Assembly (NCBI RefSeq): GCF_006345805.1
Contig: NC_043006.1
Coordinates: 98,084,001-98,148,000 of the forward strand
From: Octopus sinensis
Taxonomy: Eukaryota
DNA length: 64,000 bases
Reading direction: 5' to 3'
Below the pieces are notes generated by a model, which searched no databases, was not told where the DNA came from, and saw nothing but the letters and a program-made list of their open reading frames with translations. Each line of letters opens with the position of its first letter. The first letter of the stretch is position 1. Positions 2,940 to 61,571 of this stretch are shown piece after piece. Made by a program: the position numbers and the translations under genes.

Positions 2940-5900
2940 TGTTCAGTTTTATTTCAAGATTTCTTGCTTATAGAGAACGGTTTCTAACGTAGATACAAGG
3001 CTCCTTCATTGCAATTTCAACACCAACAAAGGGTATTTTTATTAGTTTGTATCTATGTATATATGTATGTATATGTGCAGATTTGTATATTTTGCTTTAT
3101 GTATGTATTCTCATGCATATTGTTGCATACCTAGACATGCTAATGTATATTTAAATGATAAACTTCTGGAAAGTTTTACAGATTTTTAGTTTCAGTAATG
3201 GATTGGATCTGTAGTCTCCGAATTAGCTTTCTCCTTCCTGATTTTGAGAAGCCTAATTTCTCGAGATTGATAGTTAGTCAGTGCGTTACATATACCAGGG
3301 CCCCAATAATTACAAGTATAAAGCTGAACTTGTAATGTGGATAGAGTAACTTCAGCAAAGATATTCTCTTTTTCACTGATCATTAACTTTATTTTAACAT
3401 CCACTGGGCAGCTAATTTCACAACTGTACACAGTCACTCGTCTCAATCGCACATCATTATATCAGCTCTGTTGTGCTTACATTTTACTGAGGTCTTCACT
3501 GGGACATTCCACCAGTACCCATTTCTATTATGAGTGCCTATGGCTTCTGCCATACTGTGGGTTCTTATTTCTATTCCTTGGGGTCATTCTTCGACGAATT
3601 TCATTATAGAGTGTTCTAGTTATAACATCGTGTCTCATCGGTAAATAATAACCTGATGACATTTTGGGACAACTGCTTACGCTGCGGGTGATATCTTTGG
3701 TGTTAACCTCATGAGGTCTGCAACGGTTGTCCCATTTTACTTCTTTTCCTGCATGTCTATTCCTTTCGTGCATCAGGTACTTGGTTGATATTTCCTGTTC
3801 CTGGATTGCAAACGCATACCCTTCAAAGCGGGAGGTACTATTTCGGTTATTGGTCCATGATAAACTGCTTTGACGATCGATGTTACTATCATCTCGGAGC
3901 TTTCTACTAAAATATTCATACTTAATCTTCTTCTCATAAATGATCATCATTTCAACTGATGATATGTTTCGGCAGAGACGTGCGACTTCTTTGCGCTTGT
4001 ATTTTCGGTTATCAGACAAAAAATGTTGCTCAAGGAGCTGCCTTCCAATTCTTATGATGGATGTTCTCAGCCTCATGTATGCAAACTTGGTCAAGAATTG
4101 CACTTCGACAATTGGTGGTTAAAAGATGTTGCCGAAGGGATATGTACGACATTCAAAGGCATTTTGGGTTGATGTTAGGCCTCTGCCGCCTTGTTTTCGT
4201 TTTAGGTAGAGGCGGTCTACGTTACAGTTTATGTGGATATTATGTGTGATTATTAGTGTTTTTCGAGTTTTCACATTAATGGCTCGGATCACATCAAGCA
4301 TCCAATCAAGCAGCCCAAATGTTGGTATGAATACCGACACAGCAAACACATTGTGGGCTACTGTTTTATTGAATGCAGAGAGTTCTGAGATTCAGATTTT
4401 CTTTATTCGGTTGTAATATTCTTTAATAACACGTGTTTTGTTACAGGTAGCATTGTAAGATATGTTGTCACCCACCCCTACTTACCTGTAACATTCCTCG
4501 TCCGATATAGGGGAGACAGTCAAATTATTGATGGAAATGTCACTAGAATGGTTTATAGTTTCACCTTTTCACAACCATGACAACATTTGTTCCGACCAAA
4601 CTGCAGCCATAAATCCTTTGAGAATGTTGTAACTAGGTCAAGGATCTTTTTCATCTCATGCATATTCTGTGCCTAAAGAAACAGGGTAATTTTGGTATTT
4701 CTGTTTCCTTATGAACCAGTGAAATCCTTCAGACTTCCTTAATATGAATGACAAGGTGTTTACGGAAAGTATAAACAACATCACAGAAGGAGGCTGTCCT
4801 CTTGGAATATGCCTTTGCGACACTGTATTCTATCAGTGATAATACAATGACTCTTCGGGGTTAATTTCAAGATGGTGACCCACGATGAAGTCAGTTCAGT
4901 TATGTCTTTGACTATGCTCACTAAAACTTTAGCAAGTTGAAGGGCCTCTAGCATCCATTAGTGAGAAACAGAGTCTAGCCACATTGAAACTAGCTTCCTC
5001 CTATGCTCTCGCACCTCTGACATTACAGATTTGTTGATTAACAATTGCTCGGTGCATCACTTGCTTGTTCTGCAGTGATGACGTTATTGATTTCACAATT
5101 GTCCTGGAAGAAGAGGTTCAAACATGCTGTGTATATCTCATACATTAAGTTCTGGCATGCAACTGGCCGGTAGTGTTTTGCCATGTGGGTGGTTCTGCAT
5201 TTGGGGTTCAATTTTGTCTTTGCCAGAGCTAACCAGTGTGGTATGCTACTGTTCCCAATGAGTGCTTGCTGGTACAGATTGATAAGATACGGTCAGTAGA
5301 ATGTGAGCTTCTTGTACCAATATCGAACCAGCAAGTCTCTTCCAGGTGTTTTTCCATCCTGGAGTTCCTGGATAACAATTGGAAGACTTTTACCATCAAT
5401 GTTGTATGTCTTGAGTGTAAGGCAGGAGCAATACCTTCTTCGGATTTCTTCCAGCCACAGTGCAACTTGATTAAACTCCTTCTCGTCATTCCATATTTTT
5501 CTCCAAAAAGATTTTATGTCTTCCCATGGAGGAGCTTCTGTGATGTTCCCTGCTCTTCCTCTCATGTCACTGTATACTGTTGCCTGGTTCTGGTTAATTT
5601 TTTTGTTTATTGTTATTTTTTCTTGGTTATTCTCTTCGTGAAATCGGAGGTTTTCTCTGATAGCCTTTAGCTCCTGCTTGAGGCTAAACAGTCTGCAAGT
5701 GAGTGTACTCTTTTTGCTGTCTCCAATCATCATTTCTATCTCCTTCTTTACTTTCTGTTAGTGGAACGTATAGTGATTTGCATGTTTGCACGCAGTAAGC
5801 ATCATTATAGTACTGATGGTCTTCCGTAAATCAGTTGTATTTTTCTCTGTCTTCAAAACCCATGATAGTACTTACTTTGTTGTTTCAATTTTGTTTCCTA

Positions 5901-14462: not shown

Positions 14463-14493
<31 letters not shown>

Positions 14494-14925
14494 GTATATA
14501 TGTGCAGATTTGTATGTTTTATATATGTGTTCTCACGCATATAGTTTCATATCTATATATTTAAATGATGAACTTCTGGAAAGTTTTGCAGATTTGTACA
14601 GTTCCAGTGATGGATTGGTTTTTGTAGCCTTCGAATTAGCTTTCTCCTTTCTGGTTTTGAGAAGCCTAATTTCTTAAGATTGGTATTTAGGCAGTGTCTT
14701 ACATATCCCACGGCTCCAATAATTACAAGTATAAACCTGAACTTGTAATCCGGATAGAGTAACTGTAGATTTCTCAACGGTTCAGCATAGGTGTTCTCTT
14801 TTTCACTGATTTTCAGCTTTATGCTAACATCCGCTGGGCAGCTAATTTCCACAAGTGTGCACAGTTTCTTTTCTCTATCCCAAATCATTATATCAGGTAT
14901 GTTGTGTTTACATTTTATTGAGGTC
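14294..14925 (-). mobile_element. 5'-truncated Dong/R4 LINE 3' end (restriction-like endonuclease + 3' UTR)
   Basis: KCKHNIPDIMIWD..LVEISCP..EKENTY (PD..E.K-type core); 3' UTR homologous to 2940-3200. Confidence 0.85.
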
Positions 14926-15076
14926 TGTATGAATGTATGATTGTAAGTATGTATGTATTATGTAAGTCTGCATGGATCAATGGATGGATGGATGGATAGA
15001 TGCATGCATATATGTATGCACGTACATACCTATATGTATGTACACACACACACATATATAGATATACACATATATA

Positions 15077-19100: not shown

Positions 19101-19642
19101 TATATATTTATATATGAGGATAATATCGATATTTAAGTATCCATATTATCTAGTGGCCAGCATGGGAAAAATACCGTACAAAGGTAATAATTTTTAACAA
19201 TTAAAAATGAGGGTGTCTAAGAGACACCAACATGCCGAAATAGCAGTCGAAACTCTGACTATAAAAACCACGTTAAGGGTTCGTGTCGCACCATGAGATA
19301 AGACAGATAGACAAAATATACAAGCAAAAATTATTGAATAATTCAAGATCCAGGATTTCTGATTTTGCTTTAAATAAGCTTTACCGTCATCGGTTGAATA
19401 TATCAAGAGTACATAAATACAGATATATACATGCAGAACAAACGGTATACTTACATATACGAACGTCCATACATAAATACATATGCACGTATGCACGCGG
19501 CCAGTTAAATTACCCGCCGAATCATCCCAAAGTACGACACGGTTAAAATAAACACCGCAGTGAAAATAATAACGAATTATATATATTTATATATGAGGAT
19601 AATATCGATATTTAAGTATCCATATTATCTAGTGGCCAGCAT
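19101..19642 (-). mobile_element. Penelope-type terminal repeat (pLTR) with ~62 bp terminal direct repeat
   Basis: Identical TATATGAGGATAATATCGAT...GGCCAGCAT at ~19101-19163 and ~19580-19642; contains hammerhead motif; downstream of GIY-YIG fragment on minus strand. Confidence 0.7.
19341..19399 (-). ncRNA. Type I hammerhead ribozyme motif (U4C variant)
   Basis: AUUCAA-CCGAUGA-cggu...auca-GAAA-UCCUGGA-UC-UUGAAU; 6 bp stem I, quasi-palindromic stem III, imperfect stem II. Confidence 0.65.
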
Positions 19643-19654
19643 ATATATATATAC

Positions 19655-19685
<31 letters not shown>

Positions 19686-19769
19686 CATATATATATACAT
19701 ATAAATAGTTATTTATTTCTATTAGTTTATTTATCTGTGTATTTATTATGTTTTCAGGATCCTCTATCG

Positions 19770-20142
19770 TCATATGTTGTGGTGTGTGTTAGTGCTCCAT
19801 TCTGGTTTTCTATTCAGGCTAGGTTTATTTTCTATTATGTGTGTAGCTCCTGTAATTTGTCTAATTGTTGCATCTGATCTATGTGTGGATAATATTTTAA
19901 TTTCTATGTTATTGATTGACACCCCGTGTTCCTGTTCGGCGTGTTGGTACAGAATCAATGAGATTTTACCTTCCTTGAGTTGTCTCCAATGCTCATTTAC
20001 CCGCTCTCCTATGCTTCTTGCCGTTTCCCCTACGTATGTCGTTGTCTTGTTACTGCATCGTCCCTCTATACATCTTATACTATAGACTACATTTTTGGCT
20101 TTACAGTTTGTTTGTGGGCTAAATCTACATAGAGTACAGTAC
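19770..20142 (-). pseudogene. Penelope-like GIY-YIG endonuclease C-terminal fragment, copy 1
   Basis: CTLC..NCKAKNVVYSIRC..TYVGETARSIGERVNEH..LYQHAEQEH..KPSLN. Confidence 0.85.
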
Positions 20143-20224
20143 TTATCCGTACAGGGGGTTGTACTAAAAGGATAGGTTCTACCCCAGTGTCAATTTGATG
20201 GCATGCACTGTTCTCTCACGCAAC

Positions 20225-20258
<34 letters not shown>

Positions 20259-20557
20259 ATAATAATAATATGAAACCCTGCAGAATTTCAACTCAGAACG
20301 TAACGACGGACCGAATGCTGTTAAGCAGTCTGTCTGCCGTGCTAACAATTCTGCAAGGTTGACGCCTTAATAGTAATAGCAATAATAATGAAAAGCAGAA
20401 GCATGGTTTCAAATTTAGGAACATGGCCAGCAATTTTTGGAGGGAGGGGATTTTTAATAATTTTTGCGGTATTTAGTTTCATTTCCTTTACAACAGGCCG
20501 ACCCTTTTTCTTTCACTTCGTAAGAATATGGATGCACTAGATGCCAGTTAATGTAAT

Positions 20558-20710
20558 AGGCGTAGGAGTGGCTGAGTGGTAAGTAGCCACATATGATTCT
20601 GTGTTCACTCCTACTGCGTGGCACCTTGGGCGAGTGTCTTCTACTATAGCCTCGGGCCGACCAAATCCTTGTGAGTGGATTTGGTAGACGGAAACTGAAA
20701 GAAGCCCGTC
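20558..20710 (+). mobile_element. SINE family A 5' half (duplicated at 21640-21792)
   Basis: Matches first ~160 bp of full copies; ends at internal (AT)n. Confidence 0.85.
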
Positions 20711-20727
20711 ATAATATATATATATAT

Positions 20728-20767
<40 letters not shown>

Positions 20768-20851
20768 TATATATATATACATATAAATAGTTATTTATTT
20801 CTATTAGTTTATTTATCTGTGTATTTATTATGTTTTCAGGATCCTCTATCG

Positions 20852-21224
20852 TCATATGTTGTGGTGTGTGTTAGTGCTCCATTCTGGTTTTCTATTCAGG
20901 CTAGGTTTATTTTCTATTATGTGTGTAGCTCCTGTAATTTGTCTAATTGTTGCATCTGATCTATGTGTGGATAATATTTTAATTTCTATGTTATTGATTG
21001 ACACCCCGTGTTCCTGTTCGGCGTGTTGGTACAGAATCAATGAGATTTTACCTTCCTTGAGTTGTCTCCAATGCTCATTTACCCGCTCTCCTATGCTTCT
21101 TGCCGTTTCCCCTACGTATGTCGTTGTCTTGTTACTGCATCGTCCCTCTATACATCTTATACTATAGACTACATTTTTGGCTTTACAGTTTGTTTGTGGG
21201 CTAAATCTACATAGAGTACAGTAC
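20852..21224 (-). pseudogene. Penelope-like GIY-YIG fragment, copy 2
   Basis: Identical translation to copy 1. Confidence 0.85.
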
Positions 21225-21306
21225 CCTCCCGTACAGGGGGTTGTACTAAAAGGATAGGTTCTACCCCAGTGTCAATTTGATGGCATGCACTGTTCTCTCA
21301 CGCAAC

Positions 21307-21340
<34 letters not shown>

Positions 21341-21820
21341 ATAATAATAATATGAAACCCTGCAGAATTTCAACTCAGAACATAACGACGGACCGAATGC
21401 TGTTAAGCAGTCTGTCTGCCGTGCTAACAATTCTGCAAGGTTGACGCCTTAATAGTAATAGCAATAATAATGAAAAGCAGAAGCATGGTTTCAAATTTAG
21501 GAACATGGCCAGCAATTTTTGGAGGGAGGGGATTTTTAATAATTTTTGCGGTATTTAGTTTCATTTCCTTTACAACAGGCCGACCCTTTTTCTTTCACTT
21601 CGTAAGAATATGGATGCACTAGATGCCAGTTAATGTAATAGGCGTAGGAGTGGCTGAGTGGTAAGTAGCCACATATGATTCTGGGTTCACTCCTACTGCG
21701 TGGCACCTTGGGCGAGTGTCTTCTACTATAGCCTCGGGCCGACCAAATCCTTGTGAGTGGATTTGGTAGACGGAAACTGAAAGAAGCCCGTCATAATTAT
21801 ATATATATCTTTATATATAT

Positions 21821-21862
<42 letters not shown>

Positions 21863-21865
<3 letters not shown>

Positions 21866-23610
21866 AAATAAGCAACAAGAATAACTCCGGTAATTTGGTA
21901 CGATCGTTTCGCACTACATCATTTTATTAAATGTTGTAAATATTACAACAGTTTTAAAACGCTGAGCACTCATCAGCCATTGATAGAGGTTTTCCATTAA
22001 TACATAGTTTTCATATCAAGTGGTAACATTATAGAGAAGGTAAATATGTAGACAAAGATGTGGATTTAAATTTTAAGAATATTTGAGGTAGTGGAGCCCA
22101 TCAAGTGACTGACTAAAATCCAGTTGCTAGGAACTACTGCAAGGTTCTGAGAAGAAAGAACAAATGAAAGGAGAACAAAGATTTTCTATTTATAGAATTG
22201 GGGTGAAAGAGATGTCAGAGTTCCATATAAAGAAATTTATGTAGAGAACATGATTGTCACACTACAATACCAATTACTACTATTTGGTAAACAGATTTGG
22301 TATTAGGAGAACTAGGTCAATGTCAAGTGGTCACAATAACATTCATAGAGAATGCAGAGACCTTACAAACCCTATGCACATCAACACAAACATCAGCTTA
22401 TAGGTTCCCAGTACTATGACACGTTGGATTAAAGGAAAAAATATAGATATAAAATTTATTCAAGTTAGAGAAAAGACTATCACTTATTATGAGTAGGCAT
22501 AATACTTATTAATGGGGAAAAAGTCTTATTAATGAAGTGAATATATTAGGGGTCAAAATATACTAGGAAAAATGGAAGAGGAGAAATCAAAGAGGAAAGG
22601 TAATCGTAGGTTTAGTAGAATGTGATTTAATAATATGAGGAGAGGTAATTTAGAAGAGTAAATTATTCAGATTTCATAGATAGTGAGTTGTTATTAATGA
22701 ATTAAAGTATAGGATCTGTTGGAAATAATATTTACTACCCGCGGATAAAGGTTAATTAGTTAGATAAAAATACCTTAAGTTAATTATATATTAAGAAATG
22801 GAAGTGAGATAATCAAGGTGAACCGAATAGTTTCCTTAGGGACATAGGATTTATAATATTTAGTATTGGAGAATATTAGAAGAAAGAAGAATTTAATTCT
22901 AAGTTTGCAATGAAGTTTTTTAGTAATCTATGAATGTTAAATTAAAAACCAGTATGGTATATTCATTCTTATTTGGTTATAAAGAATTGAAATTTAGGAA
23001 TATTCATAATATTATTATTTAAAATATTTAAACGTACGGTTATTTAACAGATTTGTATTACTCCAATGTTTTAAAATTTCATGTTTCCATAGAACAAAGT
23101 TGACAACCATCCCTACTATTTTTATAAGGCCGTGCTTTTCTTACTATATCCCATTTCAGGTTGAATTCTATATTATTTGTTTTTAGTTCCCAAATTTTAC
23201 TAGACAGTGTTGTGCAACCTGCTTTGTGTTTGAGCCTAAAGGAGGAAAAATGATTGTTTAAACGTTTTTTTAAATCTACCGAAGACCCGAAATAAAGTAA
23301 GTTATTGTTTGAAGTTATTATCGTACATTTATAAATCACGTTTTGGACCGGACAACGGCCAGATACCGGACATTTCGATCTAATCCTACAAATACAGCTG
23401 GGGGGAAAAAATTTCAGTACTAGTATTATTTAAGGACAGTTCACTTTCATTACTGTTATTTGAGTTATTATTAGTATTAATACTATTTTCACTAATAGTA
23501 ATAACATTGTTATGCAAACTGGGGTTACTAATTATTAATCCATCCTCACTATCATCACCTACTACACTTTTATCTAAACTACCTACTTTTTATCTATTTT
23601 ATCTATACTA
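21863..23610 (-). mobile_element. 5'-truncated Penelope-like element (GIY-YIG at ~23040-23400, long 3' region, terminal hammerhead)
   Basis: SCICRIRSKCPVSGRCPVQNVIYKC..LYFGSS.DLKKRLNNHFSSF..TTLSSKIWELK..CQLCSME; bounded by (AT)n on both sides. Confidence 0.85.
21896..21979 (-). ncRNA. Type I hammerhead ribozyme motif with intact core
   Basis: UGG-CUGAUGA-GUGCU...AGUGC-GAAA-CGAUCG-UA-CCA; palindromic stem III ACGAUCGU, GUA site, loop II contains an 8 bp hairpin UGUUGUAA/UUACAACA. Confidence 0.8.
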
Positions 23611-28648: not shown

Positions 28649-28954
28649 TTGCTGCTGTTGCTGTTGCTGCCTGCACTACTACAGCTGCTGCTGCTGTTTC
28701 TTCAGGAATTTCAATGTTAGCAATACCATCAAAAGAATCAGTATTAACAATGATTACGGTAATGATGTTGCTAATAAAACTAGTAGTGATAATAATAATA
28801 ATAATGATAACAATAACAATAATAATAATAATAATAATAATAATGATAATAATGATAATAATAATAATAATAACAACAATAATAATAATAATAATAATAA
28901 TAATATAATGATAATAATAATAATAATAACAACAATAATAATAATAATAATAAC

Positions 28955-28989
<35 letters not shown>

Positions 28990-29005
28990 TAATAATAATA
29001 ACAAC

Positions 29006-29076
<71 letters not shown>

Positions 29077-29218
29077 TAATAATAATAATAATAATAACAA
29101 TGCTATTATTATTATTCATATAAAAAAATTAATAATATGAACAATAGGAATATGCATCTTTCATTTTCTTTTTTCTTCTTTTCTTCGTCCCTTTCCCATT
29201 ATTATTATTATTATTAGC

Positions 29219-29261
<43 letters not shown>

Positions 29262-29487
29262 TTATTATTGTTGTTGTTGTTGTTATTATTATTATTATTA
29301 TTATTATATTGTTGTTGTTGTTGTTGTTATTATTATTATTATTATTATTGTTGTTGTTGTTATTATTATTATTATTATTATTGTTGTTGTTGTTGTTGTT
29401 ATTATTATTATTATTATTATTATATTATTGTTGTTGTTGTTGTTGTTATTATTATTATTATTATTATTGTTGTTGTTGTTGTTGTTG

Positions 29488-29522
<35 letters not shown>

Positions 29523-29620
29523 GTTGTTGTTGTTGTTGTTATTATTATTATTATCATTATTATTATTATTTTATTAACTTATCATCAACATCATCATCAT
29601 CATCCTCATCATCACTATTA
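28452..29620. repeat. Large compound trinucleotide array (CTA, CAC, GCT, AAT/AAC/GAT, then ATT/GTT, CAT)
   Basis: Directly visible. Confidence 0.95.
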
Positions 29621-30987
29621 TACTATAAATAGCAATGCATCAGTACAGGAAATACAGAAGAAGCATTTAAGATGACTATTTGCAGCCTATTGTCCTACAT
29701 GGTACTTGTGACATCATGTCTAGATGAGTAATATTATATGTACACACATGTATATACGTATGCATCTGTGTATATGCCTACACACACACACACGTAACAG
29801 ACACAGAAACTCACACATACATATATTTGCTGTGTACTTCTCAACGAAAATGAATGTTATGACGAAAAGTCTTCTATTGATATTCAGCAGAGAAGAGAAA
29901 GAAATGTTTATGGCTTAATCTCCTTTTTTCTTTTTTTTTCTTAACAATTACCCTTTTATTTGTTATTTCCTTGTTCAGATATTTAGTGTTCCGTTGAATT
30001 TTTATTACACATTGTGTTGGCGTTTTCATAATGTACGTAAGCTGTATGATAAGAAGGCAAATGAAGGCGTGTGTTTTTGGAGAAGAATTTCAGAAAATCT
30101 TTTGGCGTTAAAAGTCAATAATCAGCCATGGAGGATGGTACTGTTTCTTTATCTAAGTATTTCAATAACACTGAAAGTCACATTCTTTTCTTGACTTTAT
30201 CATAGCAAGTGAACTAATAAAACTTTTCTATAAACTGACTTATAGATTAATTGTTGCATATGATCATCATATGGTCGGATTCTGGGTTATCTTCTAGAAT
30301 GTAAATTTGCAGCATTCTATTATTCTAAATAGTTATCAGTTTCATCCAGGGACGTTGTCTTTAACACTATTACTTGCTTCTTTTAGACTAAATTCTCGGA
30401 CCTGTGACCCGAATCGGTCCTGGTGTTTCTTCCTGTGTTATAAGTTCGTCAGTATATTATACGAGAATTTATATAATTCTTCTTTGAACACATGGAGACC
30501 TACACCGCATAGATTTCCCAGGCCTTTTGGCGATGCAAGGAAAAGGTAATGGCCTTTGAACCCTAAGTTATCTCAGTTTTGATTTTTGATTCCTGATCGA
30601 GATGGCATATATTTATATTACGCTATGTCCAGTATGCGTAAAATGTAGAAAAACATACCTTGGAGCGATACGTATTTCATCTGTATTCGAAGCACAAACT
30701 TTAATTGGATGAAAGCAACAAATAAATTGATAAGTTAGGGGTTAACTTTAGGTTCTTTATTTTCTGAGTTGACATGGTGATAGTGTCAACTTTGTGTTTC
30801 ATCCTTCAGGTGTCAAGTGTACACGAATATTTTCTCTCAGTTTTATTAAGCGTGTGACAAAAATATATCATCTCAGTATCGAAATATCAAACGATACGTA
30901 AAAAATATTGAGACAAACAGACAGAATACGTTACTAACATACATACAGGCTTACGTACACATAAATCAACTCAGCCAGTAAACATCT

Positions 30988-31399
30988 ACTCTTTACTCTT
31001 TTACTCTTTTACTTGTTTCAGTCATTTGACTGCGGCCATGCTGGAGCACCGCCTTTAATCGAGCAACTCGACCCCGGGACTTATTCTTTTGTAAGCCCAG
31101 TACTTATTCTATCGGTCTCTGTTGCCGAACCGCTAAGTATCGGGGACGTAAACACACCAGCATTGGTTGTCAAGCAATGCTAGGGGGCAAACACAGGCAC
31201 ACAAACATATACGCACACATATATATACATATATACGGCGGGCTTCTTTCAGGTTCCGTCTACCAAATCCACTCACAAGGCTTTGGTCGGCCCGGGGCTA
31301 TAGAAGAAGACACTTGCCCAAGATGCCACGCAGTGGGACTGAACCCGGAACCATGTGGTTGGTAAGCAAGCTACTTACCACACAGCCACTCCTGCGCCT
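30988..31399 (-). mobile_element. SINE family A, full-length copy
   Basis: Colinear with other full copies. Confidence 0.9.
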
Positions 31400-32294
31400 A
31401 TATACAGATATATAAACAATCATCCATAAACTGAAATGCGCTATAAATATACCTACATATAAATGCATATATAGTTATGGAAATATTCGGTAATATTTTA
31501 CTAATATACATACACACTTACGCACTAATAATACAACTTAAGTAGTAAGGAACTATATCCGCACACCACACACACACACCACACACACACACACACTCAT
31601 GCATAAACGAATACATCCGTCATTGTGTTCAATAACGTATATACACATACGAGAAACACATGTAAACACACGAATATACACTCATACATAAAGCAAAATG
31701 GTCCATATTTTGTAAAACAACTTTATTTCATTTTTATTTTATATTTTTATTAACATATTAAATTATTTTCATTATTTATTATTAATCATTATTTTTATCC
31801 TTTATTTTCATTATTATACATTTTAATTTATTATCATCATTATTGTATTTAAATGAAAATAAAAAGATTAACATATGCACAAACACACACACACAACACA
31901 CACACACACACAATAAACATTCTTTCATCTGCTTAGACTGTTGTAGTAATTCGACTGATCAAAATGTAAACTATGTAATGTTCATTTTCGCCCAGAAGAT
32001 TTTCTACACAGGATACTCAAAGTGCAAGCTCATGTTATTGTATATGTTTGGCAATTTAAATTGGAAGTGAAGTGAAACAATTGTAGGCAATATTAATTAA
32101 TTAATAAATTAATTTATGTCCATTTAATCTCTCCATTTTCAAACTTAAGAATATTTATGTTTTATGATATATTTATAGAAGAAATATCTCTTCAAAGTAT
32201 ATTAAACAAGGTACCTTGGATAAATCTAACCCTATAATAGGTTTAAGTATTTTCATAGTGAATATATATTTATATATATATATATATATTTAAA

Positions 32295-37540: not shown

Positions 37541-37544
37541 ATAT

Positions 37545-37710
37545 AGGCGCAGGAGTGGCTGTGTGGTAAGTAGCTTGCTAACCAACCATATGGTTTCGGG
37601 TTCAGTCCCACTGAGTGGCATCTTGGGCAAGTGTCTTCTGCTATAGCCCCGGGCCGACCAATGCCTTGTGAGTGGATTTGGTAGACGGAAACTGAAAGAA
37701 GCCTGTCGTA

Positions 37711-37753
<43 letters not shown>

Positions 37754-37962
37754 TTGTGTGTCTATGTTTGTCCCCCTAGCATTGCTAGACAACCGATGCT
37801 GGTGTGTTTACGTCCCCGTCACCTAGCGGTTCGGCAAAAAAGACCGATAGAATAAGTACTGGGCTTACAAAGAATAAGTCCCGGGGTCGATTTGCTCGAC
37901 TAAAGGCGGTGCTCCAGCATGGCCGCAGTCAAATGACTGAAACAAGTAAAAGAGTAAAGAGT
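37545..37962 (+). mobile_element. SINE family A, full-length copy
   Basis: A-box, B-box, CCTTGGGCAAGT-like core, internal microsatellite, (AAAGAGT)n tail. Confidence 0.92.
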
Positions 37963-38662
37963 ATATATTGCCCGAACAAAACGTACTCAGATACAGACCT
38001 ACACACAAAAAGCAGAAATAGAGAATATGTGTATATATATATGTATAGACAGTCACACAAATGTATGTGGCTTAGATCCGTATATATACTGACACAAACC
38101 CTGGTGAAAGTAGAGTGGATGGAACAAAATGTTTGTAAGGTCATTAAGATTATCTAACAGATAATAGAAGAATCATAGAACATTAGGCTATGTATTCGTG
38201 CTCTAAGTGTGCAATCAGGCGTGTGTCCAAATTCGCGATTTTTCCCTTGTACAGATAGACTGAATTTCATTGCTTTTTAGGCTGATATAACTGGCATTTT
38301 TATACCTAATCAGAGAAAAAAATTAAGGCATCAGTGAACTTCATATTCAAGGGTACGATGAAGCTATAGAATTATCCGGGTACTCGACTGATAGTCAACC
38401 ACATCTTATAGCAGAAATTGCTTTTAGTTATATCAGTTCATGACATAACCTCTGTTTTTTTCTCCAATGTCATCTGTTTTTTCTTATTACCACTCTATAT
38501 TCATCTAATATTGTATGTATGTATCTATGTATGTATGTATGTATGTATGTATGTACGTATGTATGTATATATATTAGTTTTTTCACTTTTTACTATTTTC
38601 TATATATTCAACCACGTGCTTTGACAAACCAACTTTCTCATCTATATATATATATATATATA

Positions 38663-39440
38663 TGTAATAAATAAAAATATATGCATACATACAAACATAT
38701 ATGTACGTACCTACATCTACATGTATATATACATGCATATATAAATAAATATACGTAAGTACAGGACGCCACAACAAGACGTAGAAACGGGAAAAACAAA
38801 AATTTTTACAAGAAAACAAGTACAGGACATGCTACACAAGGAAAATCTCACCGTCATCAGCTGTCGCTAGTTAACTCAGGCGTGTTTCGAAGGCAAGACA
38901 GGACACATCGTCAACTAGGCCTTCCTGCGAGAGAATTAAAATAAAATTCCAAGCAGCGGGGTAAAACGGGTAAGAACACAAACAGGATGTAACAATAAAA
39001 CTGCACAATAAAATACAAGAAAAAAATACATGTACAAAAAAATACAAGACGAGAAATAAAAAGAGAATACAATACGGGAAATCAAACAAACAAGAGAACA
39101 AATGAGAAAAAAACAAACAAACGAAAAGGCCGTTTTTTGGCTAGACGAAAGATTTTGTGTGGCAGCGTGTGGAAAGCATGACTTTTCAGTAGCAGAGGCA
39201 GCGTGCAAAAGAAAGAAATTTTTTAGGCTGGCAGTGAGAAAGAAGGAAAGAGGAGGGGGACACGCTGCTAAGAGAGAGAAAAGAGGAAGAGTGAGAGGGA
39301 CAGAGAGAATGGAGAGGGTAAAGCAAAGGGAGAGAATTTCGCGTCTTAAATATTTATATAAAAATTAAATGGAGACAAGAAGTGGAACGAACCGACGAAT
39401 GGAAACGAACCTGACGCGAGGCGCTGTCAGACAATAATGT
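38663..39440 (-). mobile_element. Putative pLTR-type repeat unit; first ~170 bp repeated at 39437-40007 (SINE-interrupted); homologous to 52211-52576
   Basis: Direct sequence similarity; partial tandem arrangement; abuts (AT)n; carries hammerhead core motifs. Confidence 0.6.
38847..38907 (-). ncRNA. Candidate non-circularly permuted hammerhead ribozyme
   Basis: GUGUC|CUGUC-UUGCCUUC-GAAACAC-16 nt-GACAG-CUGAUGA-CGGUGAG; stems I and III pair, stem II register ambiguous. Confidence 0.55.
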
Positions 39441-39456
39441 AATAAATAAAATATAT

Positions 39457-39857
39457 AGGCGCAGGAGTGGCTGTGTGGTAAGTAGCTTGCTAACCAACCT
39501 CATGGTTCCGGGTTCAGTCCCACTGCGTGGCACCTTGGGCAAGTGTCTTCTGCTATAGCCCCGGGCCGACCAATGCCTTGTGAGTGGATTTGGTAGACGG
39601 AAACTGAAAGAAGCCTGTCGTATATATATATATGTGTGTGTTTGTGTGTCTGTGTTTGTCCCCCTAGCATTGCTTGACAACCGATGCTGGTGTGTTTACG
39701 TCCCTGTCACTTAGCGGTTCGGCTAAAAGAGACCGATAGAATAAGTACTGGGCTTACAAAGAATAAGTCCCGGGGTCGATTTGTTCGACTAAAGGCGGTG
39801 CTCCAGCATGGCCGCAGTCAAATGACTGAAACAAGTAAAAGAGTAAAGAGTAAAGAG
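39457..39857 (+). mobile_element. SINE family A, full-length copy with apparent 3 bp TAT target duplication
   Basis: Compared with empty paralogous site at 38671-38690. Confidence 0.92.
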
Positions 39858-40267: not shown

Positions 40268-41481
40268 GATCTGAATGATATGATATATATATGTAAAAAA
40301 TGTAATATATAAATAAATATCTGTAAATATGAACCATCCGATCTTCTGATTACCTCATTTCTTCTAATATCTAATACCTGCACATCATCTCCAAACCTTC
40401 CAATATATATATACACATATATATATATATATATATCAACAAAAATAACCGTACGTGGTGTTCCATTCAATAAGTTAACAAAACATAAGGGATGCACAAC
40501 AAACGAGAAATAGACACGGGAGGTAACGAACTCCTCATCAGTTCTCGGCCAGAGGGTCAAACGCAGTTTGACGCCTTAAAGATATGTGTGTGTATGTCTG
40601 TGTGTATGTCTGTGTGTATGTGTGATGTCTAGGTTGACATAGTAACTGATGTCCCTATCAGTGATATATAGAATTCAGTTGTCTATTTATCTTCTTGTGT
40701 TTCAAGTAGCCAGTGGGCTTACTAAAACAATAATTGGTAGCGGTAGAAGCAGTAATAATACTAAAACGTAATATTAAAAAATTAACTTTAGTTAGATATT
40801 GTGATAAAGCGCAAAATATTGTGTTATTTACCATAACAGGGCCTTTTCGGCCGCTATATCTAGCTGGATGTCATTCATTGACAAACCCATGTTTGGCAGC
40901 TGGGTTTGGCTCCTTGGCATACCTTCCAAAAATCAGCGGCTTATGTCGGAGAATTTCTATGACTTCACCAACTGCAATTTCCGGTCCCTTATTCACCCTG
41001 TTGTACTCCCATGAATTACTCTGTTTGGGGCGCGGAAGAAAATGCACCACCTGCTTTGACAGCTCTTCCCACGGACGCAGTGAGGAATGCATACACCTGG
41101 TTCCAGATCAGTTTTGTGACCGTGGAAAATGTAGAAGCTGGTTGAGGCTAGTTTGAGTAAACCAATTTTTTCCCACCCATAGTGTAGTTGATAAAAATGG
41201 ATTTAAAAAAAAGATACCTTTTTTTGGAAGGGATTTTGTTTTATTTTTTGTGAAAAATGTCAAAATTCAGGCGTACACTCTATGTCTATCCATCTATCTA
41301 TTAATCTATCTGCCCGTTTTCCTTCCTCCCCGTCTGTCTGTTTATCTGTCTGTCTCTCTCTTTCACTCCACCTCTCTCTATTATATATATAAACAAAACA
41401 AAAAATGTAACAAAAACGTAACAGGCAACTACAAAACACCCGGACAGTTAGGTGATACAAAGCAGGCCAGGAAAAAAGAAG

Positions 41482-41555
41482 GACGGGTCATTCGGAGCTT
41501 TCAATCGTCAGTCGAGAACAACGTTGCAATTTCGGCCAGTTACATTCGAGACTGC
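41482..41555 (-). ncRNA. Candidate non-circularly permuted hammerhead ribozyme, second sequence family
   Basis: GCAGUC|UCGA-augu-aacuggcc-GAAAUUGC-10 nt-UCGA-CUGACGA; stem III 5 bp, stem I 4 bp, stem II partner weak or displaced. Confidence 0.5.
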
Positions 41556-43483
41556 GCCAATCTGTCCGACCCCAAGATAATCTAAGCTAAGAGCACTTGA
41601 TTCTTTGGAAGTAAGCAAGCGGATGTATACGAAAATAAGGACACAAAACACGTAGAAATGGTACACAGTTACAAATACAAACAACAGGTGTCTTTCGACT
41701 AAGGACGAATTGAATTAAGCTGACGTGTTTAGAAGCGAAGCATTACAGCAGGAATCTAAGAGATGAAAATCATGGGAAGGAATATAAGAGATGCTACACG
41801 CATGGTAGTCGAACTAAAAAAGAAAGGTCAGGCTTGGCGGAACACCGGCCACATGGAAGGAGAGGGGAGAGTTGGAAGTAGAGGGTTAAAGAGTTAGGAA
41901 GGGACGAGAAAGAAAGAAAAAGAAAGGAAAGGAACAGAGTGAGGTAAAAGAGGATGGAGTAGTTCTCTCTCTGTGAATTAGATACGTAAAAAAGAACGAC
42001 ATTGATTTGAACGTTTATCTCAAAATAACAGGAAAATAAAAAAAACCCTCGTGATTGAATGGTTAAAGATGCTAAAATTACATCACTAATAATGCTTGCG
42101 GTGGTCTGTTATGTATGTTACTAGTTGCTTGTATTGATCATGCAGTTATCCTCTTTATCTCTTTTAGCGATGGCATATTCATGATTCTGAATTATTTTAG
42201 GAAGTTTCTTCAAGTCTGTTAAGAAAACCCATTTCCTATCTTTCAACATTTAAACGTATATTCGATACAAACACAATATATATATATATATATATATATA
42301 TGAGATCGTGTTTTAGCTTCAGAGAAATTCATATACAGCTGTCATATGATTAAAAATCACTCCAGCGGTGACTACACTGAATGTTCATTCAAAATATTAG
42401 TGACTATTTTGCCGAATATGTGCTTTCTGTCTTTCAACAGATTCTGTGAAGGAGATTAGTCAAATAATTCTAGCAGGTAGGAACACCATGTGCGGTAACT
42501 TCCTTAGTTTCATACGCCTTTAGGCTTTTTCGACATGAGCGCTCACATGCACATATTTGTAGAAAAAGAGAAAATGAAAGAAAAAGTAGGAGAGAGAAGG
42601 AACGTGAGAAAAAGAAGAAGCGTAAAAATTCTTATAGAAACATACCTACCAATATATTTACTATAAAATAAAAAAAAATGTGAAGACACATTAAATTTAA
42701 AATTCTATGTATGAACATTCCTGTTATCATCATCATAATGGTGATTATCATCACCTACATTGGTAACGGAATAAATTTTTTTTTCGCCTTTCGTAAAATA
42801 AACGGCTGCGATTGCCTTTTTATAAATAAAGTACTCACATTTTGTATAAACTATTTATTTTATTGCCGGCGAGATATTATTTGCGTTATTTCTTAGAATA
42901 GACAACTATATCTGCTGCCTCAGCATACGTAGTACGTTTATAGGAAAATTAGGTACATTAGGTGTGAAAAATAACATCTTGTATATTTATGAATAAAAAA
43001 AAATAATTAAAAGAAATCCATTAAAATTTTCGAAATCTTTGTGACATTTGGACCATCCTGTATATTAGAGTAACTTCTTTTTTCTTAAAGCGGGGTGCAA
43101 TATGTTTCAGCGAAGAAATTCATTGTAGAAGTGTAGTCTGAAGATTCATTAACCGAGCAAATGAGATATAGATTTTGATTTACCAACATAATAAATAGAT
43201 ACAATTCAATGAATCAAAGGGTCATATTTTAAGTTGTTGGTTATGGCAGGTCAGACAGTCAGCACTGTTTTCACGTTTACTATTGAACTTAACGATACAG
43301 GAAGCCTATCAGAGTTAGAGGCTGGAGTGAGATCTCAGAAGGAGACAATCGTGTATGCAAACACATATACATGTATACATTTGTATACACACACACATAC
43401 ATAATACATACATACATACGTACATACATACATACATAAAACATAATACATACATACACACGCACACTCACACATACACATAT

Positions 43484-43669
43484 AGGTGCAGAAGTAGCTG
43501 CGTCGTATGTAGCTTGCTTACCAATCACGTGGTTCTGGTTTCTGTCCCACTTGCGTGGCATCTTAGGCAAATGTCTTTTACTATACCCTCGGCCGACCAA
43601 ATCCTGGAGAGTGGATTTGGTAGGCAAACACTGAAAGAAGCCCGTCTTATAGATATACATATATATACA

Positions 43670-43730
<61 letters not shown>

Positions 43731-43935
43731 GTGTGTTTGTGTGTCTTTCTTTGTACCACGCCATAGCATGACAAAAGATGTTGGTGTCTTTTCCCCCCGT
43801 AACCTAGCGGTTCGGCAAAACATTCGGATGGAATAAGTACTAGGCTTACAAAGAACCATTCCTAGGGTAGATTTGATCGAATAAAGGAGGTACTCTAGCA
43901 TGGCTGCAGTCAAATGACTGAAACGAATATAAGAA
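43484..43935 (+). mobile_element. SINE family A, older diverged full-length copy
   Basis: Colinear with young copies, expanded internal microsatellite. Confidence 0.85.
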
Positions 43936-43961
43936 TAAAATAATATATATACCTATATACA

Positions 43962-52210: not shown

Positions 52211-52214
<4 letters not shown>

Positions 52215-52576
52215 AGGACCATTTCAACGTAGTTGTGTCCTGCCCTTACCTTCGAAACACGCAATAAGTCGAAATAGGAGCAGTTGAAGAAGGTGAATGT
52301 TCCTTGTGTTGTTGTCTTGTACTCTGTTTTTTCGTTGTTAAAAAAAGTCCGTTTCCATGTTTTGTTTTTATGTTTTCATTTCTCGTTGTGTTCTACGTTC
52401 TTTTTTTTTGTGGTGTCCTGTACCCATATATGCATGTATATATACATAGAGATGTAGGTATGTACATATATGTATGTATGTATGCATATGTTTTATTTAT
52501 TAAATTGTTATTAATAAATATATGTTCCACGTGCTCGCGTTTTTGTGTTATCTCTTTGTTCATATTTGGATTAACT
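52211..52576 (+). mobile_element. Putative solo pLTR embedded in (AT)n
   Basis: Homologous (inverted) to 38663-38930; (AT)n on both sides. Confidence 0.6.
52234..52297 (+). ncRNA. Candidate non-circularly permuted hammerhead ribozyme (C3U variant)
   Basis: GUGUC|CUGCcC-UUACCUUC-GAAACAC-17 nt-GaGCAG-UUGAAGA-AGGUGA; compensatory stem I pair relative to 38847 copy. Confidence 0.5.
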
Positions 52577-61240: not shown

Positions 61241-61465
61241 GTGTGTTTGTGTGTCTGTGTTTGTCCCCCTAGCATTGCTTGACAACCGATGCTGGTGTGT
61301 TTATGACCCCGTTACATAGCGGTTCGGCAAAAGAGACCGATAGAATAAATACTTGGCTTACAAAAGAATAAGTCTCGGGGTCGAGTTGCTCGATTAAAGG
61401 CGGTGCTCCAGCATGGCCGCAGTCAAATGACTGAAATAAGTAAAAGAGTAAAGAGTAAAAGAGAG
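61241..61465 (+). mobile_element. SINE family A 3' half
   Basis: High identity to 3' half of full copies, with (AAAAGAGT)n tail. Confidence 0.88.
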
Positions 61466-61493
61466 TATATATATATACAACCACACAGGTGTA

Positions 61494-61524
<31 letters not shown>

Positions 61525-61571
61525 ATATATATATAATATATATATATATATACAACCACACAGGTGTAATG

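Follow-up and report, generated by a model that had tools for sequence, protein, structure and literature searches.

Six permutations of the hammerhead ribozyme were derived by Eckert 2023 on the assumption that CUGANGA cannot be parted from its stem II strand, and non-circular forms came almost only from environmental sequence (PMC10085705). There, type SGC was reported only from metatranscriptomes, and type CSG was represented by two metagenomic sequences, both of which cleaved. Naiads were reported without a canonical hammerhead (Craig 2021, PMC8557442); 'HHR_half_core' was flagged in eight Naiad families including Naiad_Ovul, and that report gave no fold for these half cores.

The locus described here lay on the minus strand of a 64-kb stretch of Octopus sinensis DNA (contig NC_043006.1, positions 98,084,001 to 98,148,000; hereafter the window). 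Its design displayed the strand order II(a)–b–III–cut–I–II′(a′)–GAAA–III′–b′–I′–CUGANGA, with the chain open between A9 and G10.1. CUGANGA thus stood apart from the stem II strand, which breaks the block rule of Eckert 2023 (PMC10085705). Type SGC (HRIMA-1 and variants) and the octopus design shared the S-G-C order, a stem I–II bracing helix, the full set of core letters, and a short connection between stems I and II, but they displayed three differences (PMC10085705): (i) block C was split in the octopus design; (ii) the stem II and bracing strands followed CUGANGA in type SGC, with the stem II strand 1–2 nt after it, while both preceded block S in the octopus design; and (iii) type SGC came from metatranscriptomes, while the split-core design occurred thousands of times in an animal genome. 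Type CSG and the octopus design had an identical cyclic strand order, but the opening of type CSG lay between stem III′ and the bracing strand (PMC10085705), while in the octopus design these two were joined, often via a kink-turn-like motif, the opening was at A9/G10.1, and the linear order C, S, G with an intact block C was not present. The cyclic C-G-S order of types I, II, and III was likewise absent, the order here being S-G-C.

Penelope-like hammerheads (PMC4209133) resembled the octopus design in placing the core within the terminal repeats of retroelements, in G10.1:C11.1, and in tolerating a base between positions 9 and 10.1, but they had a circular order and a very short palindromic stem III and work as dimers, while the octopus design had a stem III of 4–6 pairs and a non-circular order. 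The tolerated base points to a flexible 9/10.1 step; no precedent for a full opening was found. In the pseudoknot-containing hammerhead (Zhan 2024, PMC11300833), the role of helix II likewise involved long-range pairing, its loop forming a pseudoknot with a stem-loop that is attached to helix I, but the accessible text described no A9/G10.1 opening. In the literature searched (mostly sources other than subscription papers and the Eckert supplements), this wiring was not described, and no hammerhead cleaving with A9 and G10.1 unlinked was found. The split-core hammerhead is a real feature and a new hammerhead variant, outside the membership of SGC and CSG; by analogy, it would work much as a type-SGC/CSG hammerhead does.

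Organization of the copy at 41382..41958

The features of this copy were as follows.

41382..41958, minus strand: family A repeat copy, non-coding, 77–83% blastn identity to six long copies
41566..41571, minus strand: strand a, the stem II 10.x strand (G10.1 = 41571), upstream of the cut site
41560..41565, minus strand: strand b, stem I–II bracing helix; family pairing 78–100% per position
41556..41557, minus strand: 5′ GA site of the predicted kink-turn at the stem III/helix b junction; GC here
41550..41555, minus strand: block S, composed of stem III strand GCAGU (41555–41551) and C17 (41550)
41546..41549, minus strand: stem I 5′ strand UCGA; 4 pairs with 41515–41512 (subfamily majorities 5–6)
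41526..41539, minus strand: block G, composed of 11.x strand (41539–41534), GAAA (41533–41530), and stem III partner (41530–41526)
41516..41525, minus strand: bulge of the kink-turn plus strand b′; lacks 6 nt relative to the family, GA changed to GU
41505..41515, minus strand: stem I 3′ strand UCGA (41515–41512) and core CUGACGA (41511–41505)
41482..41504, minus strand: 3′ tail including GACCCGUC; no stem II strand

The copy was 5′-truncated (longer family A copies were ~750 nt) and ended in a short (TA)n run. The original prediction had read permuted hammerhead blocks on the minus strand, GCAGU-C-UCGA / GGCC-GAAA-UUGC / UCGA-CUGACGA, and all of them were located at 41555–41505, with stem III (five pairs, one G-U; partner AUUGC at 41530–41526) and stem I (four pairs) in register as it had stated. 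Its view of stem II as missing or weak, with GACCCGUC as the partner, did not hold: GACCCGUC gave 0–1 consecutive pairs with the 11.x strand at offsets 0–2 in six family A majorities, and the strong partner was found upstream of the predicted 41482..41555 segment, where strand a GGUCGG (41571–41566) formed 6/6 pairs, two of them G-U and one of them G10.1:C11.1, with CUGGCC (41539–41534). Two further readings were excluded by register: the tail read as type I, and a type III fold whose stem II would have 2 nt.

The predicted cut fell between 41550 and 41549, the chain exited the core after A9 (41505), and the hammerhead core letters were intact. Damage was seen elsewhere: both kink-turn GA steps were altered, stem I had four pairs, pair 15.2 was a wobble, and the partner of strand b had suffered a deletion in the b′ strand, as judged from an alignment of 41 segments from 30 family A loci. 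Helix b stacking was −5.2 kcal/mol, compared to about −13.7 in intact copies L002 and L006. Disruption of the bracing helix abolished cleavage in type SGC (PMC10085705), and because helix b is damaged here, the copy is probably a weak or dead cutter; on this analogy, self-cleavage would probably be poor or nil. Rfam gave no match at E up to 10 within 41380–41700, and no hammerhead appeared among the 150 listed of 298 matches for the whole window. Read from sequence, 41382..41958 is probably a decayed non-coding copy, likely of Penelope type, with an S-G-C core and an upstream stem II, whose intact relatives likely self-cleave as monomers.

Pairing support for the four-helix fold

Helices III, I, II, and b were observed in a fixed register, together with all core letters and a chain ending after A9. 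The original prediction had been made to depend on the family consensus holding a stem II, and such a stem is there: in the family A majority, GGCCGG, 21 nt upstream of the cut, paired with CCGGCC before GAAA, giving G10.1:C11.1. The next strand after GGCCGG, CCAGAU, paired with AUCUGG directly before stem I′ to form helix b.

When 409 distinct seed regions were clustered, 23 clusters had at least three members; 15 of these parsed as the motif, and the other eight (two family A groups with truncations or deletions, six unrelated repeats) were left out. The 15 subfamily majorities plus four single copies made up 19 representatives, with 95 pair cells per helix. The cells were paired as follows: stem I, 94/95; stem III, 94/95; upstream stem II, 93/95; and helix b, 88/95. 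Because the representatives are related in groups, these cells are not independent events; moreover, the best-pairing upstream strand was the one chosen, and the search pattern already constrained C11.1 in part. At least two Watson-Crick pair types occurred at 4–5 of the 5 positions in each helix (stem I, 5/5; stem III, 4/5), and of the within-family compensatory changes two were at CpG sites. Shuffling of the upstream 40 nt gave p of at most 0.053 in 14 of the 15 majorities and 0.20 in one. CUGANGA, GAAA, and UH were present in the 41382..41958 copy and in the 19 representatives, all of which also had G10.1:C11.1, a pair not independent of the search pattern.

Stem II was the point at which the fold could be set against an ordinary type SGC reading: there, the sequence downstream of CUGANGA would form stem II after a single extra base, leaving the upstream strand as a competing and perhaps inhibitory partner. 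Penelope-like hammerheads often carry a base between positions 9 and 10.1 (PMC4209133), and the tails of families B and C (AGGG) gave 3–6 pairs with CCUUC at offset +1 in 7/9 such majorities; these tail pairs, however, were mostly G-U and showed no covariation, while the upstream pairs were Watson-Crick and varied by family. Tail pairs numbered only 0–1 in family A, 2 in the Naiad-linked family, and 0 in the L313 family. Across the 19 representatives, classical stem II cells were paired in 39/95 with no insert and 51/95 with a 1-nt insert, the first pair being formed in 0/19 and 11/19, respectively, and a stem II with purine 10.1:pyrimidine 11.1 was provided only by the upstream strand. In 68 gap-free family A copies, upstream stem II was 76–91% paired per position, compared to 3–15% for the classical pairing. 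We regard the type SGC reading as very unlikely and retain the upstream strand as stem II.

All four helices were kept in only 7/68 of these copies, which indicates that copies decay neutrally. Position 7 was free in copies otherwise conserved (A 31, C 13, G 13, U 11), with no alignment majority letter, and position 17 was C in 58, U in 9, A in 1, and never G. A kink-turn consists of a 3-nt bulge followed by tandem G-A pairs. Of 20 representatives listed, 12 had GA on the two strands next to stem III together with a 3-nt bulge, four had a variant spacing, and four lacked the pattern; GA on both strands was present in 50/68 family A copies. The predicted kink-turn would bend stem III towards helix b. 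In nested folding, from which pseudoknots are excluded by the model, helix b and stem III were recovered in intact L002, L006, and L161 and were not recovered in L192, L401, and the two window copies.

A leader-tail helix closing the A9/G10.1 gap was considered and dropped as a general feature, because it was not significant across the 15 majorities (p 0.07–0.88). It was clear in single families, namely L167, L312/L313, and published coral entries (accessible part of the PMC8557442 supplement); in L312 and L313, a long leader-tail helix started from A9+1.

Chance expectation and genome-wide counts

In 25 local dinucleotide shuffles of 600 kb, the three-block match occurred 19 times, corresponding to ~0.76 per 600 kb and ~0.08 per 64-kb window, and none of the 19 shuffle matches had four helices. 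By three-block match, the single 41482 locus is suggestive only; being only modestly rare by chance, it leaves the case to rest on family and genome-wide evidence.

The descriptor search proposed with the original prediction came out divided. The strict form gave 0 matches in 60 evenly spaced 10-kb stretches of the real genome (600 kb), and the window therefore overstates the density of intact copies; a relaxed form gave one match in the same 60 stretches. Two block-order patterns, on which no pairing rule was imposed, were enriched: pattern 1 had 2,724 genome matches versus 15 reversed-pattern controls, and pattern 2 had 3,938 versus 398, summing to 6,662 versus 413. The family A core pattern had 257 genome matches versus 0 controls. 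These patterns, with the pairing across the 19 representatives, support the predicted recurrence of a permuted hammerhead architecture in retroelement repeats.

Family A

In a genome search with family A, 40 of 1,988 candidate matches were scored, the 39 other than the window copy showing 81–84% identity, and homologs were present in 3/60 evenly spaced 10-kb stretches. Inspection of 30 family A loci (3.2 kb) turned up no coding remnant, and no blastn similarity was found between family A and RT or GIY-YIG ORFs or Naiad loci. Family A thus has no ORF with N-terminal GIY-YIG and RT as Naiad/Penelope elements do and is non-autonomous; because it lacks similarity to candidate mobiliser ORFs, its mobiliser is a presumed one. 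Naiads and other Penelope-like elements show (TA)n insertion, partial tandems, and inverted truncated copies (accessible part of PMC8557442), and family A displayed all three: (TA)5 directly followed 21/53 complete 3′ ends (background 8%), partial tandems occurred in 7/59 loci, and an inverted partner in 9/59. It differed from the Naiads there described in its lack of an ORF and of detected Naiad similarity. Family A sequences were also present in contig sets from runs under four organism codes, which are uninformative on ends or expression. At window positions 41800–41850 (minus strand), A-box- and B-box-like words lay ~35 nt apart in family A; the many T runs after these words make Pol III transcription doubtful.

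Other families and links to coding elements

Two further copies of the design, of family B type, were found in the window.

38854..38924, minus strand: family B copy with the same four-helix design, intact; predicted cut after 38902; unit ~38641–39460
52213..52290, plus strand: decayed B-type copy; begins at a (TA)n junction immediately ahead of strand a

The former had 6 pairs in stem II, 9 in helix b, 5 in stem III, and 5 in stem I. It followed the family A layout in other letters (GAAGGC/GCCUUC plus the 9-pair helix), and the 41482 repeat showed no blastn similarity to this 38847 family, in agreement with the predicted difference in stem sequences. The claim that both share a strand order with the 52234 copy was borne out in part: the S-G-C order was that of the copy cut at 38902, but the core at 52234 was broken, reading UUGAAGA at 52284–52290 with a change at position 3. 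The claim of two independent sequence solutions is doubtful. Because layout, spacing, and often the kink-turn-like motif are common to the families and published Naiads share the fold, families A and B are more simply read as common descent with stem turnover than as independent origins.

The proposed link to Penelope-like ORFs was seen for another family of this genome, and none was seen for family A. At locus L310, a decayed RT end was followed by the motif; with this RT fragment as the query, the motif was found downstream on the same strand in 7/29 further Naiad-type RT loci, with one opposite-strand raw match, lacking the helices, near RT loci. The motif was absent within the 1.5-kb flank in 22/30 RT loci. 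Three RT fragments matched the RVT_1 profile with weak scores. The seven RT-linked loci formed one family, resembling by eye the 3′ ends of Naiad_Obim and Naiad_Ovul in the accessible supplement of PMC8557442. Inspection of 30 loci from a GIY-YIG search revealed no Naiad-type N-terminal arrangement; the domain was C-terminal in loci with a readable frame, and a few of the 30 were other genes. L127, L128, and others made up a young abundant family with open frames of ~780 codons and GIY-YIG at the end.

The design was also located behind decayed frames of LINEs with a zinc knuckle and a restriction-like endonuclease in L312, L313, and L314 (motif near 5403, 5075, and 5046 on the minus, plus, and plus strands, respectively). 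In the window, 3531–4118 (minus strand) held a remnant of 196 codons in which cysteine/histidine and RHD-like motifs could be read, and related pieces lay at 3045–3495 and 14470–14926. This remnant resembles the end of a REL-type LINE; Pfam gave no relevant match for it, and no hammerhead core was found near it.

The split fold was recognized by eye at the 3′ ends of two octopus Naiad entries (including Naiad_Ovul) and, among the entries reached by term searches in part of the PMC8557442 supplement, at those of three coral and four unnamed ones. An intact CSG form with the bracing helix was recognized by eye in four Naiad entries of that supplement, two of which were placed among nematodes via neighbouring headers. 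The octopus fold is a circular permutation of this type-CSG hammerhead of nematode Naiads.

In B/C families (window 38925–38945 on the minus strand, L161, and L191), a 3′ splice-site-like pyrimidine run and CAG preceded G10.1, and some tails carried GU two bases after A9; family A had no such splice-like features. They bear on the proposal that the core is completed after RNA processing, whereby splicing, circularisation, or a tandem transcript would join CUGANGA to strand a to give a CSG/GCS-type ribozyme. A Penelope intron ending at a hammerhead helix (PMC4209133) and the partial tandems in 7/59 loci fit such a route, but the acceptor before G10.1 was missing in family A, the Naiad-linked family, and the L313 family; a donor was lacking in most B/C tails, which read AGGGG; several hundred bases separated A9 from the next G10.1 in tandems; and no spliced genomic copy was seen among the motif loci listed. 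Completion by RNA processing is thus highly improbable in our estimate, and the core is taken to act in its open form.

The window carried other repeats. A ~420-nt dispersed repeat was present in both orientations, with ~90% identity among four full copies (656–1084, 30987–31404, 37541–37963, 39453–39852, 43480–43950, and 61241–61540 being its sites). At 19641–21870 lay a ~1.1-kb tandem duplication with 98% identity, either recent or an assembly artefact, and at 28695–29570 a long low-complexity short-period array switched orientation to give 260-nt inverted arms. Microsatellites dominated the repeat listing of the window.

Insertion 5′ ends near the predicted cut

Among 26 family loci with (TA)n junctions, 24 had the junction at +1 to +13 relative to the cut and two at −1 to −16 (p 5e-7); this tally was made by hand from the first 100 matches listed, which represented 27 loci, one unrelated locus being left out. 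In a downstream control covering 27 nt and 227 Mb, 30 family loci were counted, ~four-fold fewer per base (39 loci listed by hand; seven unrelated and two with internal deletions left out). In family A copies anchored at GAAA, 17/94 5′ ends fell at +1 to +17 (p 6e-5), compared to 2–6 per 16 nt upstream of the cut, and 77/94 copies extended upstream through the cut site. A family A set anchored downstream (66 copies), which overlaps the GAAA set, showed a weak excess (7/49 at +1 to +17). The peak of the excess lay around +5 to +14 instead of +1, and its form may owe something to microhomology with (TA)n.

This profile could also be produced if the structure were a non-catalytic relic that binds or primes the reverse transcriptase, the excess reflecting enzyme stalling: the ends peaked within stems I and II, and copying could stall at a strong four-helix knot. 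Yet the ends fell sharply just upstream of the cut despite stem III, b, and a lying there, and the catalytic letters were all kept across families with unrelated stems, with position 7 free and position 17 never G. A relic is accordingly judged unlikely, and cleavage at the predicted site is preferred.

Proposed mechanism and significance

In the proposed mechanism, stem III and helix b would fold first, bending at the kink-turn, and stems I and II would then close as pseudoknots; A9 would pair with G12 atop G10.1:C11.1 with no covalent link between them. The cut after position 17 would set the 5′ end of the RNA copied by a partner reverse transcriptase, which is likely that of a Naiad and possibly that of a REL-type LINE. 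The design may have originated by circular permutation of a CSG ancestor, plausibly via tandem repeats, for which the nematode Naiad CSG forms would be the natural parent.

On balance, we favor the fuller reading, in which this is a seventh natural hammerhead wiring, found in animals, with the core open at A9/G10.1 and supplemented by an extra helix and a kink-turn; in which it is the missing ribozyme of Naiads, derived from a CSG ancestor still present in nematode Naiads and having spread also to an unrelated LINE group; and in which it cuts in vivo and sets insertion 5′ ends. If true, an animal-genome form that breaks the assumption joining CUGANGA to stem II would widen the fold space of the best-studied small ribozyme, and it would explain the Naiad 'half cores' and reverse the view that Naiads proliferate without a hammerhead.
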